Assembly: GCF_044647545.1 (NCBI RefSeq)
Contig: NZ_CP172818.1
DNA length: 64,000 nt
Reading direction: 5' to 3' (one strand)
Source: Escherichia coli
GTDB lineage: Bacteria > Pseudomonadota > Gammaproteobacteria > Enterobacterales > Enterobacteriaceae
The first letter of the stretch is position 1, and each line of letters starts with the position of its first letter. The translations under genes were made by a program, and so were the position numbers. This document shows, piece after piece, positions 6,384-64,000 of this stretch. The notes beneath the pieces were generated by a model, which was not told the DNA's origin, searched no databases, and saw only the letters and a program-made list of their open reading frames with translations.

Positions 6384-6629
6384 GACTATCCCTTATATTT
6401 CATTGCTGCGATTATTTCAATTTCAGTATACTAATGAAATGATGCCTGACTGTTTCTTAGCGCAAAAACTGCCAGATTTGGTAGGACCAAAATTTATCCA
6501 CAAAGTAGTTTTGCATAACAGTTAATTGATAATAAGTAAATGCAACACGAATATATTTTCGCACAGCGTATAGCTTATGTTTATAAAAAAATGGCTGATC
6601 TTATTTCCAGTAAAAGTTATATTTAACTT

Positions 6630-6735
6630 ACTGAGAGCACAAAGTTTCCCGTGCCAACAGGGAGTGTTATAACGGTTTATTAGTCTGGAGACGGCAGACT
6701 ATCCTCTTCCCGGTCCCCTATGCCGGGTTTTTTTT
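6630..6735 (+). ncRNA. gadY: GadY small RNA, antisense to the gadX 3' UTR
   Basis: Plus-strand sequence actgagagcacaaagtttcccgtgccaacagggagtg... ending in hairpin cccggtcccctatgccggg plus T9, in the gadX-gadW intergenic region opposite to gadX. Matches my recollection of GadY; the 5' end is approximate. Confidence 0.7.
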
Positions 6736-6751
6736 ATGTCTGAGTAAAACT

Positions 6752-41826: not shown

Positions 41827-41875
41827 ATAGCCGCCTGAGTTGTAATGACAACGTTTCGCGGCTATTCTTGAGTGG

Positions 41876-41941
41876 TCTAGAGTCAAGATTAGCCCCCGTG
41901 ATGTTGTCAGGTGCATACCTGCAACGTGCGGGGGTTTTCTC
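41876..41941 (+). ncRNA. rdlD: RdlD antisense RNA (type I antitoxin of ldrD); approximate coordinates
   Basis: Plus-strand segment opposite the ldrD leader ending in hairpin cccccg...cgggggttttct; position inferred from the known ldr/rdl arrangement, ends not verified. Confidence 0.5.
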
Positions 41942-49287: not shown

Positions 49288-49860
49288 TATTCTGCTCCAA
49301 TTGTGATGTTTGTTGTTTTAACCCTTTGCAGTGGGTTGTCGCCGCCTGACCTTTTTTGTTTTTTGCCCGGTCGGGTCAACGTTATGAGGTGGGGATGCCG
49401 TACTAATTAACATCAGTGTAACAGTGCGGATCCTCCAGAAAATGCCCCTCGTGACCTACAATCTGTCAACAGAATGTGAAAACGTCAATACAGCCAACCG
49501 GGATTTACACCAACGGTGAGAATCAACAAACAAAGATTAAAAAAACTTCAAACAGCTATTTGCAGCAGAGAAATTTGTGCTACGCCAACACAACCAGAAC
49601 AATCAGCTTAATATTTAGCAACATTTGGTGATTAAGTTTTATGCATTTAATGAAAAAAATCTGAGGTAAAGGTGGATATCTGAGCGATTAATACCATGAA
49701 CGCTAAAACGCACAGGGGAAAATGCCAGCGCCAGCCATAAGTAACGCAAAAAAAGATTTAAGCAAATATAAAAAAAGACAATGGTTTCTGTCACAAATCC
49801 GTTAATGGATAGTGAGATATGGGGCGCAAATTTGGCAGGGAAATGTGTGGTGTGTAGATC

Positions 49861-49937
49861 GGATAAGGCGGTCGCGCCGCATCCGACAATGGGCCGGTAC
49901 ATTTGCCTGATGCGACGCTGACGCGCCTTATCAGGCC
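49861..49937. repeat. REP/BIME cluster upstream of dppA
   Basis: ggataaggcggtcgcgccgcatccgac and gcctgatgcgacgctgacgcgccttatcaggcc are REP-type palindromic units. Confidence 0.7.
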
Positions 49938-50801: not shown

Positions 50802-50878
<77 letters not shown>

Positions 50879-50969: not shown

Positions 50970-52661
50970 TTAGTTAGCCGCTGCCTCTTTTGCCTGCGGG
51001 ATGTGGCACCAGTTGTTGTTTTCGTTAATTCCACCATCCGGTGAAGTATAGCCAAGACACCCCATGATGGTGTCGTACAGCTCTACATGACGGCGTGGCA
51101 CTTTCATGTCGGCTTCTTTTTTCAGCTGCGCAAATGCCTGCGCATTGACCGGATTTTCCAGATATTTATCCGACATCCAGACCATCATCGGCACACGGAA
51201 CTGTTCCGGCGGTGCCAGTTCACGCGGCGTGCCGTGCAGGTGCTCGCGTTCATTAATTGACTCACCGTGGTCAGCTGCATAGAACACAATCGCTTTCTTA
51301 TCGCGAACCTGATCAATCACGCTGGAAATAAAGTGATCCACATAGGTCACCGAGTTGTCGTATGAGTTGATCATCTGCGCTTTGGTACAGCCGCTATCAA
51401 CACCAATACATTCCGGCTTCCACTGCGCAAAGCTGCGCGGGTAACGCTGGGTGTAGTTAAAGTGTGAGCCTTTGGTATGCAGAATGATCAGATGCTTACC
51501 ATCCGGGTTGCGCCCCAGCGACTGCTGCATTTCGTCTACCAGCAACATATCATCTACCGGTTTGCCACGGTTACGTGGCTCCGCACCAATCTGCTCACGA
51601 TAAGCAATGTTGTCCGCCATCGTATTGCTGTAGAACCACATTTCGCTTTGCATAGCGTAGAGATCAGAAGTGAATCCTAACTGCTTCAGCACCGCGAAAA
51701 TATTCTGTTCTTTTAATGTGCGCTGCGGATTATCTTCTGCTCCACCCTGACGTACAAACATGCAACGCAGTGAGAGTTTGGTTGCAGTATCACAGGAGTA
51801 ACCACGGAACGCCGCCAGATTTTTCTCCTGAGCCAGTTTCGGTGTGGTATTGCGTTCATAGCCGAAAATGCCCATATGATCCCAGCGCGTGGTTTCACCA
51901 ATAATGAAAACGACATATGTATCATCAACGTTTTGTGGAGCCTGGTACGTAAACTTCTTCGCAGGGTTAAGGAGAGAATTGTTATCGGAAGATTCATCGA
52001 CCCGCGCCCAGGCATAAAGACCTAATGCCGAAAGCCAGTTTGATGGCAGATAAGAGTTCGCGACGACGCCGCCATAACTCGGCAAATCAACACCTGTCGC
52101 CCTCTCCACTTTCTTCTGCTGGATATCCAGCAAACGAATCGGTGCCCAAACCATAATACCTGCCAGTACGACGACCGCCAGGCTGCGAATACGCTGCCCT
52201 GGGGTTCGCAGTTGTCGGAGCAAGGTGTAACGACAGCGGTTATTCCAGATAAGGATAAGAGGCAACGCGCTTACGGCGATTAACCAGAGAATAAAGTTCA
52301 GACCAACAACTTCTTTTGACAGGTCGATATCGGTGGTCATGACGGATGCGATGATGCCATAACCAATGACTACATTAAGGAAGGTCATGTAATAGCTGGC
52401 ACCTGCGGAAAAGAGCACCACCAGCGATGCCAGAATACGCCAGCTGCGGCGGCCAAACAGCGAAAGAAGACGTAGTAAAAAGAAGGTCACCAGTACGGTG
52501 GCAGCCAGTTCAACAACAGCAGAAATGCCTTTCCAGACGGTAAAATCGTGCGCATAGCTGCCGAAACGGCGGTAAAAAACCGCGCCATTCATAAAAAGGC
52601 CAATATAGATTGCAAGCAAAAAGCTCAGCTTCTGCTGTGTAATCGATTTGATGTATCTCAT
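50970..52661 (-). CDS. eptB: Kdo2-lipid A phosphoethanolamine transferase EptB (563 aa)
   Basis: ORF 50970..52694 trimmed to [23 protein letters not shown] at 52659-52661; N-terminal TM segments plus sulfatase-like domain. Confidence 0.92.
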
Positions 52662-56278: not shown

Positions 56279-58580
56279 GTGTCAGTTCCGGACCGTTGTA
56301 TTTTTCCAGCCATGCCAGCGCCGTATTACCCGCACAGCCATTCCCCAGCCGCGAGCTGGGGAGATCTTTGGTCAGAACGTTCACCGCGCCGTTTTTACAA
56401 ATACCGTCAGCGGTTAAATCCAGATCCGGCCATGCCCCTTCATGAATGCAAATCACGCCAGGTTTAATTCCCTCGCTAATGACCGCTCCGGCAAGAATTT
56501 GCCCGCGTGCGTTCCACAGCCGAACAGTATCGCCATCTTGTATGCCGCGCGCCTGAGCATCGTCAGGATGAATGGTGACAGGCTCACGGTTTGCCACCGC
56601 GTACAATTCGCGCAGAGAACTGTAATTCAGCTGGCTGTGCAGACGATGTGCCGGATGAGCAGAAAGTACCTGCAACTGTTCCGGTTCGGCATTGCCCTGC
56701 CATTCGTCCGGCTCCAGCCACATTGGATGCCCCGGGCAATCCGGATAAGCGTAATCAGCAATACGCTGCGAGAAGATTTCAATCTTGCCGCTGGCGGTTT
56801 TTAATGGATGCGCCTGCGGATCGCGGCGAAAATCGGCGAAGCGAATAAACCGCTCGCTGTCCGGGTTTTCCGGCATCTCAATTAACTGGTTGGCTTCCCA
56901 TAACTCAGCAAATGGCGGCAATTCAACCTGCTGGCTTGCCCCGCGCTGCCGGGCAACGTTATAAAACGTTTCCAGCCATTGCAGCTCACTTTTTCCTTCC
57001 GTAAACCGCGCATAGCCGCCCTTCTCCCAACGTTCACTCAACTCGGCAAAGACATCAAAATCATTACGCGCTTCATAACGTGGAGGCACCACTTGCTTCA
57101 TCGGCACCAGATGCTGATTACTGTAATCGCCGGTCATGGTGAGATCATTACGCTCAAACGAAGTGGTCGCAGGCAGAACGATATCCGCGTGTTTCGCCGC
57201 AGCCGTCCAGAAGCATTCAGAGATCACCACCAGCTCCGGTTTTTGCCAGGCACGGATCAGGCGATTGGTATCCTGATGATGAGTAAAGTTGGCACCGCCC
57301 GCCCACCAGATAAAACGAATATCCGGGAAATGTCGGTCCATACCGTTATGTTGATATGCGCCACCAGGGTTTTCCAGTGCTTCAACAATGCGGGCGACAG
57401 GGATTTTATCTACCGCATCGGTGCCACCCGGCAAGCTGCCCTGCATGGAAGAGAGCACCGCAGCGCGGCGCGTGGGGTTACCACCATTGGCAAAATGGTA
57501 AGAAAGACCAAAACCGCCGCCGGGTGTGCCGATTTGCCCCAACATTGCCGCCAGCGTGACGAGCATCCAGTGTTTTTGCTCACCAAACTGTTGGCGCTGC
57601 ATTCCCCAGCCTGCCATCAGCATGGTGGTATTTTGGTGGAAAATAGCCGCCAGCTCGCGGATTTTCGCTGCGCCAACACCACAAATCTCTGCCGCCCATT
57701 CGGCGTTTTTCGCTATACCGTCACTCTCGCCCAGCAAATAAGAGGCGAAGACGGCATAACCTGTGGTGCAACGCGCCAGAAACGCTTCGTCGTGCCAACC
57801 ATTTTCCACCAGCGTATGGGCGATCCCCAGCATCAACGCAACATCGGTGCCCATGTGCGGAGCCACCCATTCCATTTTATCGCCAAAGAAATCGACGGTT
57901 TCCGATCGCATTGGATCAATGCAGATCAGCTTTTTCCCGCTGTCACGCAGTGCGGAAAAGTAAGAAAGCCCCTGCTCATCGGATGCATTCCACGCAATTT
58001 TCAGCGTATTGAGTGGGTTAGCACTCCATAGCACCACGACATCGCTATGTTCCAATACCAACGGCCAACTGGTTTGCTGTTGATAAACTTCGCTGCCCCC
58101 CACGACATACGGCATGATCGCCTGTGCTGCACCGGTCGAATAATCCCCCAGATGCCCGGTATAACCGCCTGCAAGCGCCATATAGCGTTGTAATAATGTC
58201 GAGGCCTTATGCAGCACGCCGTTTGAACGCCAGCCGTAGGAACCAGCAAAAATCGATGCCGGACCATAAGCCTCACGAATACGTTTATGTTGATGGTGAA
58301 TAAGCTCCAGCGCCTCATCCCAACTCACGCGAACAAATTCATCCTGCCCACGAATGCCTTGCGGATTTTCCGGTGACGCAAGAAAGCCTTTGCGCACCAT
58401 TGGAAATCGCACCCGCGTATTGCTGTGAACCTGGTCGCGAACCGCGCTCTGCAAGGAGTTTTCCATTCCTGTGGCTAACGCGCCACGCGAGCTAAACACG
58501 GTTTCGCCGTCGGTTTCAACCAGCATAGGCCCCCAGTGGGCGGCAGTCAGAACGGAATATCGTGAGGATGAGTTGGCCAA
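56247..58580 (-). CDS. bisC: Biotin sulfoxide reductase, molybdopterin oxidoreductase (777 aa)
   Basis: 777-aa DMSO-reductase-family ORF with N-terminus [19 protein letters not shown]; its 3' end overlaps the 3' end of yiaC. Confidence 0.93.
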
Positions 58581-58732
58581 ACCGAAGACTCCTGAAAGGT
58601 TAGATGTATTGAGCAGTTAAATATTACTTACAAATTTCCGAGTATTCCCAGGAATAATCTTCATGCTCACGCGGCATAATCTCCCGCCACGGAACCCGTG
58701 GCAAAGAATAAAAAGGTTATTAAGGATTAACA

Positions 58733-59392
58733 ATGAAGAAACGTGTTTATCTTATTGCCGCCGTAGTGAGTGGCGCTCTGGCGGTATCTGGCTGTACAAC
58801 TAACCCTTACACCGGCGAACGCGAAGCAGGTAAATCTGCTATCGGCGCAGGTCTGGGCTCTCTCGTTGGCGCGGGTATTGGTGCGCTCTCTTCTTCGAAG
58901 AAAGATCGCGGTAAAGGCGCGCTCATTGGCGCAGCAGCAGGCGCAGCTCTGGGCGGCGGCGTTGGTTATTACATGGATGTGCAGGAAGCGAAGCTGCGTG
59001 ACAAAATGCGCGGCACTGGTGTTAGCGTAACCCGCAGCGGGGATAACATTATCCTCAATATGCCGAACAATGTGACCTTCGACAGCAGCAGCGCAACCCT
59101 GAAACCGGCGGGCGCTAACACCCTGACCGGCGTGGCAATGGTACTGAAAGAGTATCCGAAAACGGCGGTTAACGTGATTGGTTATACCGACAGCACGGGG
59201 GGTCACGACCTGAACATGCGTCTCTCCCAGCAGCGTGCGGATTCCGTTGCCAGCGCGTTGATCACCCAGGGCGTGGACGCCAGCCGCATCCGTACTCAGG
59301 GCCTTGGCCCGGCTAACCCAATCGCCAGCAACAGCACCGCAGAAGGTAAGGCGCAAAACCGCCGTGTAGAAATTACCTTAAGCCCACTGTAA
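58733..59392 (+). CDS. yiaD: OmpA-domain outer-membrane lipoprotein YiaD (219 aa)
   Basis: Lipobox LAVSGC, Gly-rich segment and a C-terminal OmpA-like peptidoglycan-binding domain (NRRVEI). Confidence 0.92.
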   Translation: MKKRVYLIAAVVSGALAVSGCTTNPYTGEREAGKSAIGAGLGSLVGAGIGALSSSKKDRGKGALIGAAAGAALGGGVGYYMDVQEAKLRDKMRGTGVSVTRSGDNIILNMPNNVTFDSSSATLKPAGANTLTGVAMVLKEYPKTAVNVIGYTDSTGGHDLNMRLSQQRADSVASALITQGVDASRIRTQGLGPANPIASNSTAEGKAQNRRVEITLSPL

Positions 59393-59495
59393 TCCCTTTC
59401 ATGTCAGGTGATGCAGAAATCACCTGGCATTCTTCAGTTTTCCTTCATCATATTTCAGGCTAAGGTGATCGCCTTATCAGTGAATGGAGAGAAGC

Positions 59496-60470
59496 ATGAA
59501 GCCGTCCGTTATCCTCTACAAAGCCTTACCTGATGATTTACTGCAACGCCTGCAAGAACATTTCACCGTTCACCAGGTAGCAAACCTCAGCCCACAAACC
59601 GTCGAACAAAATGCAGCAATTTTTGCCGAAGCTGAAGGCTTGCTGGGTTCAAATGAGAATGTTGATGCCGCATTGCTGGAAAAAATGCCGAAACTGCGTG
59701 CCACATCAACGATCTCCGTCGGCTATGACAATTTTGATGTCGATGCGCTTACCGCCCGAAAAATTCTGCTGATGCACACACCAACCGTATTAACAGAAAC
59801 CGTCGCCGATACGCTGATGGCGCTGGTGTTGTCTACCGCTCGTCGGGTTGTGGAGGTAGCAGAACGGGTAAAAGCAGGCGAATGGACCGCGAGCATAGGC
59901 CCGGACTGGTACGGCACTGACGTTCACCATAAAACACTGGGCATTGTCGGGATGGGACGGATCGGCATGGCGCTGGCACAACGTGCGCACTTTGGCTTCA
60001 ACATGCCCATCCTCTATAACGCGCGTCGCCACCATAAAGAAGCAGAAGAACGCTTCAACGCCCGCTACTGCGATTTGGATACTCTGTTACAAGAGTCAGA
60101 TTTCGTTTGTCTGATCCTGCCGTTAACGGATGAGACGCATCATCTGTTTGGCGCAGAACAATTCGCCAAAATGAAACCCTCCGCCATTTTCATTAATGCC
60201 GGACGTGGCCCGGTGGTTGATGAAAATGCACTGATTGCTGCATTGCAGAAAGGCGAAATTCACGCCGCCGGGCTGGATGTCTTCGAACAAGAGCCACTGT
60301 CCGTAGATTCGCCGTTGCTCTCAATGGCCAACGTCGTCGCAGTACCGCATATTGGATCTGCCACCCATGAGACGCGTTATGGCATGGCCGCCTGTGCCGT
60401 GGATAATTTGATTGATGCGTTACAAGGAAAGGTTGAGAAGAACTGTGTGAATCCGCACGTCGCGGACTAA
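59496..60470 (+). CDS. ghrB: Glyoxylate/hydroxypyruvate reductase B (2-ketoaldonate reductase), 324 aa
   Basis: ORF 59484..60470 trimmed to the ATG at 59496 ([16 protein letters not shown]); D-isomer 2-hydroxyacid dehydrogenase with NAD motif GIVGMGRIG. Confidence 0.92.
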
Positions 60471-60519
60471 GCCGCGACTGCGTGGAGTAAAGCCCGATAA
60501 TCGCTCGGGCTTTTACTCT

Positions 60520-61230
60520 TTATTGGGTTGCAGTAACTGCTGTAGTCCAGGCCTGATTAAACGCCTGATGCTGTGCCGGTAATGGCGCAATCAGTTTGTT
60601 ATATTCACTTGCCTGCTGTGACGTCGGGAACTGGATGCCATTTGCGACAAAGCTCACCTGAGTACCTTGCTGAGCAATGTAGTCTCCAACCATCACCAGT
60701 TGTTGCGTGAAAGTTTGTGCAGCCGGAATCAACGGTTGCAATGCATCAGCTGGCGTCGTTACCACTTTGGTGAATGCCTGATCAAAGACCGGTTTCAGGT
60801 CATCACTCTGTTTTAACGCAGAGTGTGCAGCATCGGCCTGCAACTTCGCATTTTGCAGCTGTTGCGCCAGCACACCCAGCGAACCGTTCATTTCACGCAG
60901 TGGGCCGCTTTGCGTAACGTAATCCTGCGGTACGCGAATTGCGTTAACGCTGTCTACAACCGGGCGCAGACCGGAATCCATCGCCTGATTCACCTGCTGT
61001 GAATAACCATACAGAATCGCGTAATCAGAGACAAAAGGACCAAACTGTTTTTTCTGATCGGCAGTCAGGGTTGGTAGACGTTCACCGCTACGCATCACTG
61101 TATTCTGCAGGAAGTCGATAAACGCTTTACGCTGATCGCCTTCTTTATCAAAACACCCACTCAGGCTAACTACCATTAATAACGCCGCAAGAGGCGCAAA
61201 CCAGCGAGAGCAGGACTTTCCTGTCGCCAT
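60520..61230 (-). CDS. yiaF: Putative lipoprotein YiaF (236 aa)
   Basis: ORF 60520..61350 trimmed to MATGKSCSRWFAPLAALLMVVSLSGC (lipobox) at 61228-61230. Confidence 0.85.
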   Translation of the reverse strand: MATGKSCSRWFAPLAALLMVVSLSGCFDKEGDQRKAFIDFLQNTVMRSGERLPTLTADQKKQFGPFVSDYAILYGYSQQVNQAMDSGLRPVVDSVNAIRVPQDYVTQSGPLREMNGSLGVLAQQLQNAKLQADAAHSALKQSDDLKPVFDQAFTKVVTTPADALQPLIPAAQTFTQQLVMVGDYIAQQGTQVSFVANGIQFPTSQQASEYNKLIAPLPAQHQAFNQAWTTAVTATQ

Positions 61231-61663
61231 TTTCTTACTCCTTTCACCCAAAAAAAGCGCACAACGACACACGCGTGTCTGACGTGACAAGGATAGTCCA
61301 GGACAGGCTTGCAGGATACCCTTTCTACGTAATCTTCCTGGTAAAATCATGGAGAAAATGAAACAAGGTTAATTTGTTGTTTCATTGTTAAAAAATGATA
61401 GTGCCGTTGCTTTTTTTGTAGCCAGAGATTTACGCCTTCTCAGAACGTTAGATTTTCGAAATCTTTACAAACCGGGAGTGGTAAGAGATATATCGGCATT
61501 TATCAGATCGTTAGGTGGCTATAAGTCACGCTAAATGACTGGCTGAATCGAATCATAGCCAGAGCATGCCCTGACTACACCCCGCTGTGTCTGTTTTTCC
61601 CGACTATTCTTAATGAGCTTCGATGCAATTCACGATCCCGCAGTGTGATTTGAGGAGTTTTCA

Positions 61664-61954
61664 ATGGAATATAAAGATCCAATGCATGAGCTGTTGAGCA
61701 GCCTGGAACAGATTGTTTTTAAAGATGAAACGCAGAAAATTACCCTGACGCACAGAACAACGTCCTGTACCGAAATTGAGCAGTTACGAAAAGGGACAGG
61801 GTTAAAAATCGATGATTTCGCCCGGGTTTTGGGCGTATCAGTCGCCATGGTAAAGGAATGGGAATCCAGACGCGTGAAGCCTTCAAGTGCCGAACTAAAA
61901 TTGATGCGTTTGATTCAAGCCAACCCGGCATTAAGTAAGCAGTTGATGGAATAG
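61664..61954 (+). CDS. yiaG: HTH (XRE/Cro-type) transcriptional regulator YiaG (96 aa)
   Basis: 96-aa ORF with an HTH motif around GLKIDDFARVLGVSVAMVKEWESRR. Confidence 0.88.
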   Translation: MEYKDPMHELLSSLEQIVFKDETQKITLTHRTTSCTEIEQLRKGTGLKIDDFARVLGVSVAMVKEWESRRVKPSSAELKLMRLIQANPALSKQLME

Positions 61955-61980
61955 ACTTTTATCCACTTTATTGCTGTTTA

Positions 61981-62006
61981 CGGTCCTGATGACAGGACCG
62001 TTTTCC
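61981..62006 (+). terminator. yiaG rho-independent terminator
   Basis: cggtcctgatgacaggaccg followed by ttttcc. Confidence 0.65.
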
Positions 62007-62038
62007 AACCGATTAATCATAAATATGAAAAATAATTG

Positions 62039-62067
62039 TTGCATCACCCGCCAATGCGTGGCTTAAT
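62039..62067 (+). promoter_or_regulatory. cspA promoter (-35 TTGCAT, 17-bp spacer, -10 CTTAAT) with AT-rich upstream element
   Basis: ttgcat at 62039-62044 and cttaat at 62062-62067, with the AT-rich tract aatcataaatatgaaaaataattg upstream. Confidence 0.7.
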
Positions 62068-62075
62068 GCACATCA

Positions 62076-62234
62076 ACGGTTTGACGTACAGACCATTAAA
62101 GCAGTGTAGTAAGGCAAGTCCCTTCAAGAGTTATCGTTGATACCCCTCGTAGTGCACATTCCTTTAACGCTTCAAAATCTGTAAAGCACGCCATATCGCC
62201 GAAAGGCACACTTAATTATTAAAGGTAATACACT
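62076..62234 (+). promoter_or_regulatory. cspA 159-nt 5' UTR (cold-box and thermosensor leader)
   Basis: Leader beginning acggtttgacgtacagacc..., which matches the cspA mRNA 5' UTR as I recall it; ends at the cspA ATG. Confidence 0.7.
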
Positions 62235-62447
62235 ATGTCTGGTAAAATGACTGGTATCGTAAAATGGTTCAACGCTGACAAAGGCTTCGGCTTCATCACT
62301 CCTGACGATGGCTCTAAAGACGTGTTCGTACACTTCTCTGCTATCCAGAACGATGGTTACAAATCTCTGGACGAAGGTCAGAAAGTGTCCTTCACCATCG
62401 AAAGCGGCGCTAAAGGCCCGGCAGCTGGTAACGTAACCAGCCTGTAA
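62235..62447 (+). CDS. cspA: Major cold-shock protein CspA (70 aa)
   Basis: Exact CspA sequence [70 protein letters not shown]. Confidence 0.97.
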
Positions 62448-62474
62448 TCTCTGCTTAAAAGCACAGAATCTAAG

Positions 62475-62502
62475 ATCCCTGCCAAATGGCGGGGATTTTT
62501 TT
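62475..62502 (+). terminator. cspA rho-independent terminator
   Basis: atccctgcc-aaat-ggcggggat followed by tttttttatttg. Confidence 0.7.
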
Positions 62503-62635
62503 ATTTGTTTATTCAGGAAATAAATAATCGTTCGCGTAATAAAATCTATTATTATTTTTGTGAAGAATAAATTTGGGTGCAATGAGAATGCGCAACGCCG
62601 TAAGAAAGGCGGGAATAACTTCCCGCCGAAGACGC

Positions 62636-62788
62636 TTACTCTTTCAATTTGCAGGCTAAAAACGCCGCCAGCTCATAATTCTCCTGTTTAATATGCAATT
62701 CACACAGTGAATCTCTTATCATCCAGGTGAAAAATAAAAGCGTGAAACAAATCACTATTAAAGAAAGTAATCTATATTTCTGCGGCAT
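62636..62788 (-). CDS. hokA: HokA, Hok/Gef-family type I toxin peptide (50 aa)
   Basis: MPQKYRLLSLIVICFTLLFFTWMIRDSLCELHIKQENYELAAFLACKLKE from the ATG at 62786-62788. The IS150 end lies 32 bp upstream of this start codon. Confidence 0.85.
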   Translation of the reverse strand: MPQKYRLLSLIVICFTLLFFTWMIRDSLCELHIKQENYELAAFLACKLKE

Positions 62789-62867
62789 TCCCAGCCTCCT
62801 GTGTTGATTTCCACCGAGTATGTACTGCACCCATTTTGTTGGACGATGAAATGGAATAGCCCCTGAT

Positions 62868-63389: not shown

Positions 63390-64000
63390 AAGTACTCAAC
63401 GAGCTAAGGCAGTTTTATCCTCTTGATGAGCTTCTCAGGGCTGCGGAGATACCGCGCAGTACGTTTTATTACCATCTAAAGGCTCTCAGCAAGCCTGACA
63501 AGTATGCGGACGTTAAAAAGCGTATTGGTGAGATTTATCACGAGAATAGAGGCCGATACGGATACCGTAGGGTAACGCTGTCTCTTCATCGAGAAGGGAA
63601 ACAGATTAACCATAAAGCTGTTCAGCGCCTGATGGGAACCCTCTCACTTAAAGCAGCGATTAAGGTCAAGCGATACCGCTCTTACAGAGGAGAGGTAGGG
63701 CAAACCGCCCCTAATGTTCTCCAAAGAGATTTCAAGGCTACGCGGCCAAACGAGAAGTGGGTTACCGATGTTACTGAATTTGCAGTCAATGGGCGCAAGC
63801 TGTATTTGTCTCCAGTAATAGATCTCTTCAACAACGAAGTTATTTCTTACAGCCTTTCGGAAAGACCAGTGATGAACATGGTTGAGAATATGCTCGATCA
63901 GGCATTCAAAAAGCTTAATCCTCACGAGCATCCTGTTCTGCACTCTGACCAGGGATGGCAGTATCGTATGAGAAAATATCAAAATATTCTTAAAGAACAT
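63386..64000 (+). CDS. insK: IS150 OrfB / InsK, DDE transposase catalytic domain (partial, continues beyond window)
   Basis: Manual translation in the -1 frame gives [33 protein letters not shown]...KWVTDVTEF...HSDQGWQY with no stop before the window end; absent from the ORF track because the stop lies outside. Confidence 0.85.

Follow-up and report, generated by a model that had tools for sequence, protein, structure and literature searches.

The locus considered here lies close to the end of the window, that is, the whole 64-kb stretch of Escherichia coli DNA that was analysed, and comprises the cold-shock gene cspA and the region controlling it, the cspA features described below all lying on the plus strand. 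The coding sequence (70 amino acids and a stop codon) occupies 62235-62447 and was recognised from the list of open reading frames and by protein matching. Its product is 100% identical to the CspA of K-12 and the best NCBIfam model for it is that of CspA (NF007679), which it passes with 172 bits, the cutoff being 130. Within this coding sequence the core of the downstream box, ATGACTGGTATCGT, is unchanged relative to K-12, and its coordinates we take to be 62247-62260, after Mitta et al. 1997. In most RefSeq genomes the orthologue of this gene carries the label "cspE". The protein also scores above the NCBIfam cutoff of the CspE equivalog model (124 vs. 120 bits), and this model probably overrides that of the CspA subfamily, with its 172 bits, when the gene is named.

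The order of genes, yiaG-cspA-ysaE/hokA-IS150, is the same as that of K-12. Directly 3' of the cspA terminator, the small open reading frame ysaE (62588-62659, plus strand) overlaps the toxin gene hokA (62636-62788, minus strand), as it does in K-12, and IS150 begins at 62822 and continues to the end of the window at 64000, its site and orientation also being those of K-12. The closest genome over 57955-62820 is that of FDAARGOS_497 (99.98% identical), in which IS150 lies approximately 43 bp beyond this site, is oriented oppositely and reaches an identity of only 98.8%. Because site, orientation and identity all differ, the hokA/sokA locus seems to have been hit independently by IS150. Elsewhere in the window, further Rfam matches above the gathering score occur at 776-847, 6627-6740, 41875-41940, 49857-49937 and 50805-50878, representing ES205 sRNA, GadY, the rdlD antitoxin RNA, naRNA4 and a minus-strand tRNA.

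Upstream of cspA, and following the stop codon of the preceding gene, a hairpin could be read directly at 61981-62002 (ACGGTCCTG-ATGA-CAGGACCGT, then TTTTCC). Its stem positions are largely invariant in an alignment of 15 sequences (described below), and it is likely to be the terminator of yiaG and to delimit the cspA control region on its upstream side. It was not reported by a generic terminator scan because it has only four T. Next comes an A+T-rich element of the UP type, CGATTAATCATAAATATGAAAAATAATTG, at 62010-62038 (83% A+T), the conserved core of which is the proximal AAAATAA adjoining the -35 hexamer. The latter, TTGCAT (62039-62044), and an extended -10 consisting of TGn (62059-62061) followed by CTTAAT (62062-62067) were identified by direct reading and by pattern search, and the spacer between the hexamers measures 17 bp and ends in TGG. 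All parts of a sigma-70 promoter of the cspA type were thus found, namely the hexamers, the 17-bp spacing, the TGn and the A+T-rich block directly 5' of the -35.

The initial annotation had considered both hexamers and an AT-rich upstream element to be present within 62039-62234. The latter does exist, but it lies outside of that span, which begins with the first base of the -35. As for the hexamers, identity with K-12 and conservation uphold them, but they match the sigma-70 consensus at only three of six (-35) and four of six (-10) positions, and a generic sigma-70 promoter scan did not detect the cspA promoter. We do not regard the negative scan as counter-evidence, since it is the UP element and TGn, and not the hexamers, on which this promoter is known to rely. 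The role of the A+T-rich block as an UP element goes back to Mitta et al. 1997, as related in PMC6386945, while an account of the TGn motif carried by cspA, cspB, cspG and cspI is given in bioRxiv 10.1101/2021.03.08.434349 with citation of Phadtare and Severinov 2005. On the evidence of the sequence, then, this promoter is recognised by its homology and identity with that of K-12 and by its conservation across species, and not by its consensus strength.

The leader begins with ACGGTTTGACGTACAGACC, eight bases past CTTAAT, and as the ATG is found at 62235 the 5' untranslated leader of the cspA mRNA (62076-62234) is exactly 159 nt long, an assignment supported by identity with K-12 and by the Rfam family RF01766. 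In Rfam and in the Giuliodori papers the leader is numbered from 62075, which makes it 160 nt. Going by what has been published for K-12, which is identical here, and by the first position of the Rfam model at 62075, transcription would start at approximately 62076. Close to the 5' end of the leader there is a 6-bp stem-loop, GGUUUG-ACGUA-CAGACC (62078-62094), which is helix 1 of the Rfam structure and holds the 11-base cold box TGACGTACAGA (62082-62092), matched exactly and only once in the window. An 11-base box inside a short stem-loop near the 5' end is the arrangement that marks the cold-box-containing csp leaders. Helix 1 is paired in all 15 aligned sequences, but it is also invariant in them.

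With one mismatch allowed, 10 of the 11 bases of the cold box were also matched within the yiaG coding sequence at 61746-61756 (TGACGCACAGA), and another such site occurs at 51748-51758. Three matches with at most one mismatch were reached in two of 100 shuffles, and these extra near-matches are probably due to chance.

Further along the leader, the small GCC-GAAA-GGC hairpin at 62198-62210, GCCGAAAGGCACA, was found by direct reading and in the Rfam structure. We take it to be the upstream box, in name and in role, after Yamanaka et al. 1999. Within it, GCCGAAAGGCA shows no variation across the 15 sequences and hardly any when cspB, cspG and cspI are compared. The Shine-Dalgarno sequence AAGG (62222-62225), likewise read directly, stands 9 nt 5' of the ATG and is invariant in the alignment. 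Two further candidates in this region were rejected, namely an upstream open reading frame, the leader being without any ATG, and an antisense gene, for which there are mechanical open reading frames only and no annotation at this place in K-12.

The whole transcript is covered by RF01766, the cspA thermoregulator, which matches 62075-62502 over model positions 1-428 of 428 with 500 bits (E 1.2e-142) against a gathering score of 78 bits, a match that was found again in a scan of the whole window. The gene for a cold-shock-domain protein that belongs to the family is the 70-aa CspA reading frame. All 124 pairs of the consensus structure are canonical in the sequence of the window, and across the 15 related sequences 96.7% of the cells at these pairs are paired. 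The last helix of the model is an intrinsic terminator at 62472-62499, also given by the terminator scan and comprised of 12 pairs followed by a run of T, at which the monocistronic cspA mRNA of 428 nt ends. As the match extends from the transcription start to this terminator, the unit is the whole monocistronic mRNA and not the leader alone.

When compared to MG1655, the alignment of 62010-62234 has no differences. The initial annotation had proposed that a promoter and 159-nt leader of cspA lie at 62039-62234, with alignment to a reference 5' UTR as the check, and this is borne out by the location of each element to the base, by the identity with K-12 and by the Rfam score. The substitutions that it named as speaking against an intact element were looked for in the cold box and in the downstream-box core, and both are unchanged. 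Its expectation of wild-type cold-shock regulation likewise agrees with the identity to MG1655, from which it would follow. The 196-bp span was found in 5,422 of 5,426 complete E. coli genomes, and of 60 ranks sampled at even spacing among the 5,422, 47 had it with 100% identity, making it the majority allele.

The mRNA differs from that of K-12 at four bases, all of which lie outside of this span. Position 62240 is T for the C of MG1655, giving TCT for TCC as codon 2, a synonymous change that is considered further below. At 62321 there is C in the window and T in MG1655, again synonymous, and here it is MG1655 that has the unusual base. The other two, at 62485-62486 in the terminator loop, are AA in the window vs. 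TT in MG1655. This loop (62483-62488) is polymorphic on a fixed stem, reading AAAT in the window, AATT in other Escherichia and ATTT in MG1655, and the loops of the window and of K-12 are reverse complements of one another, as from a small loop inversion or template switch.

To examine conservation, one genome per species was scanned with a 26-nt leader pattern, which yielded 13 loci, and these together with the window and MG1655 make up the 15-sequence alignment. The pattern reached Escherichia, Citrobacter and Intestinirhabdus, and a looser one would be needed for Salmonella, Klebsiella or Yersinia. As the loci were chosen by this pattern, conservation within 62089-62114 is by construction. 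TTGCAT, AAAATAA and, in the extended -10, TG as well as TTAAT are invariant in all 15 sequences; the first base of the -10 hexamer alone varies, being C or G. The spacer is 58% and the distal upstream region 51% identical. When Escherichia is compared with the Citrobacter group, identity in the leader, with the search pattern left out, is 90.5%, as against 92% for third codon positions and approximately 43% for spacer and distal upstream positions. Taken together, this is good evidence that the promoter core and the leader are under constraint at the level of sequence. As to covariation in the RF01766 structure, a single pair changed on both sides and the observed measures equalled those of the shuffled controls (276 of 500), the 15 sequences being too similar to lend it support.

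Given the identity with K-12, the working of the region can be proposed from what has been published. Sigma-70 RNA polymerase would recognise the weak hexamers TTGCAT and CTTAAT, offset by the A+T-rich upstream element and the TGn extended -10, and transcription from about 62076 would give the 428-nt monocistronic mRNA that is terminated at 62472-62499. The 159-nt leader and the early coding region would then adopt two alternative folds. At 37°C, the cold box would lie in the 6-bp 5' hairpin and the leader would pair with the coding region; access to the ribosome-binding site and AUG would be partly blocked, and the mRNA would be degraded in seconds. After a downshift, nascent RNA would retain a fold in which the cold box is paired to distal leader sequence and the initiation region is open, and this mRNA would be stable and preferentially translated. 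Binding of CspA protein to the cspA mRNA would come later after the downshift. What is said here of the start site, of the roles played by UP element and TGn, of mRNA half-lives, of two conformers and of CspA binding is all carried over from experiments that were published for the identical sequence of K-12.

Those experiments indicate that cspA RNAs shorter than 190 nt have the same fold at all temperatures, that at 37°C the 5' UTR of longer RNA is base-paired to the coding region and access to the initiation region is reduced, and that the first nine codons, as the downstream-box region, are needed for translation in the cold (PMC6386945). The cold structure forms only below 20°C, recruits 30S efficiently and is weakly structured at the start of the coding sequence, while in the 37°C form the Shine-Dalgarno sequence and AUG are partly occluded; the mRNA has several sites for CspA, nt 12-36 and nt 170-186 (site 7) among them (PMC9947658). 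The cold box is placed in the 6-bp 5' hairpin at 37°C and in a distal pairing at 10°C, the latter being thought to protect the mRNA, in the summary of Zhang et al. 2018 provided by PMC9411577. The description of the leader as thermosensing in the initial annotation therefore needs to be widened; the leader was correctly identified, but the published sensor consists of the leader together with the proximal coding region.

Structure predictions were compared with this scheme. In a fragment of 187 nt, the predicted minimum free energy structure at 37 and 25°C contains the cold-box hairpin and keeps the initiation region closed; at 15 and 10°C the cold box is paired distally and the initiation region is open. 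The agreement of this in silico flip with the rearrangement given in PMC9411577 is only qualitative. For the full-length mRNA the predicted minimum free energy structure showed no switch with temperature, which agrees with the published view of a switch that is kinetic and co-transcriptional. The folding energy of the leader was no better than that of shuffled sequence (z = 0.15), so fold stability is unusable as evidence for the element.

Of the readings in which this would not be the ordinary cspA control region, the one that survives best concerns the T at 62240, and holds that the region is functionally altered, the T weakening the hairpin that follows the AUG and so shifting the set-point or strength of cold-induced translation. 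This T is rare (63 complete E. coli genomes vs. 5,353 with C, of 5,420 in total; a minority of 1.2%), with one strain named ST648 among its carriers, and C is present in all 14 other aligned sequences, those of Citrobacter and Intestinirhabdus included. The position is nt 166 of the mRNA, numbered from 62075, and lies 7 nt 5' of the downstream-box core, inside the segment of nine codons needed for translation in the cold (PMC6386945) and next to CspA site 7 (PMC9947658). With T, a C:G pair becomes U:G beside an existing G:U in the hairpin 165-169/176-180 just past the AUG, at a predicted local cost of 2.5-2.9 kcal/mol, and when two structures of the 187-nt fragment are compared, their crossover shifts from approximately 28°C (C) to approximately 20°C (T).

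Against this, the pair is kept as a wobble, TCT and TCC are both serine codons, and for the full-length mRNA the ensemble energies of the two alleles differ by at most 0.5 kcal/mol, with the same predicted accessibility of the Shine-Dalgarno sequence and AUG. The hairpin belongs to the curated consensus structure, such that weakening it need not alter the balance of the two forms, and the cold form is only weakly structured at the coding start in any case (PMC9947658). The shift in crossover is not a figure that we rely on: the model behind it is an equilibrium nearest-neighbour one, and the fragment concerned shows no switch in experiments. The variant, on which alone any non-standard reading could be founded, is judged to be probably neutral, and a functionally altered control region is considered very unlikely. 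That a looser hairpin past the AUG shifts the temperature or efficiency of cspA translation in this lineage, in which case the T would be a naturally occurring variant in the set-point of a textbook RNA thermosensor, is given only a slight chance of being true.

A second possibility is that the named hexamers are chance look-alikes and that the true promoter or start is located elsewhere in the spacer between yiaG and cspA. The low consensus matches and the negative generic scan noted above would fit with this. However, the composite pattern TTGCAT-N14-TGN-CTTAAT has a single occurrence in the window where 0.03 would be expected by chance, and from genus to genus the -35, TG and TTAAT stay unchanged as the intervening bases vary. 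The same architecture is found upstream of the K-12 genes cspB, cspG and cspI, which have the TTGC of the -35 and the upstream AAAATAA in common with cspA and, as their extended -10, TG plus GTTAAT. Furthermore, the Rfam model, which was built on a mapped mRNA, starts at 62075, and the promoter of the identical K-12 sequence has itself been mapped experimentally, as reported by Tanabe et al. 1992 and Phadtare and Severinov 2005. A chance resemblance is therefore regarded as extremely improbable.

The paralogues also bear on whether the segment could be derived from cspB, cspG or cspI, or from a recombinant copy. In the cold-box region of cspB and cspG, CGGTTTGA..ACAGAC occurs as in cspA with the box itself differing at two to three bases, whereas the cold box of cspI is largely missing from the alignment; all three have in common with cspA the upstream box GCCGAAAGGC and, in the first codons, AAAATGACTGGT. 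Their control regions share only 69% mean column identity with that of cspA, and the genes sit elsewhere, in the Qin prophage and at the cspH-cspG locus. While their similar promoters, cold boxes and upstream boxes and the "cspE" label in many RefSeq records could suggest a paralogue, this has practically no chance of being correct and was rejected, since the control region has no differences from that of K-12 cspA, the protein is 100% CspA with CspA as its best NCBIfam model, the flanking yiaG and hokA are genes of the cspA locus, the leaders of the paralogues reach just the low identity given above, and the label is a naming effect of the CspE equivalog cutoff being passed.

The region is thus almost certainly the native cspA control region in its commonest sequence form, an element that is already known and described in textbooks. 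Being the standard cold-shock control region, it gives no reason to expect anything unusual in the cold-shock response from the cspA locus. It is of use mainly as a positive control, in that promoter, start site and leader could be located to the base from the sequence alone. The rare variant at 62240 may provide a naturally occurring test of the thermosensor's sensitivity to structure just past the start codon.

The closest known system is cspA of K-12 (RF01766), which has the same context, protein and mRNA length (428 nt) and is identical in sequence over 62010-62234; its UP-type block, -35, TGn/-10, cold box, upstream box, Shine-Dalgarno sequence, downstream-box core and terminator occupy the same relative positions. 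Among the RNA thermometers, those of the ROSE and fourU types resemble cspA in that a cis-acting structure of the mRNA at the ribosome-binding site makes translation dependent on temperature. They are, however, short hairpins that melt on warming and turn translation on at high temperature, whereas the cspA element is an alternative fold of the whole mRNA, established co-transcriptionally and favourable to translation in the cold (PMC6386945, PMC9947658).
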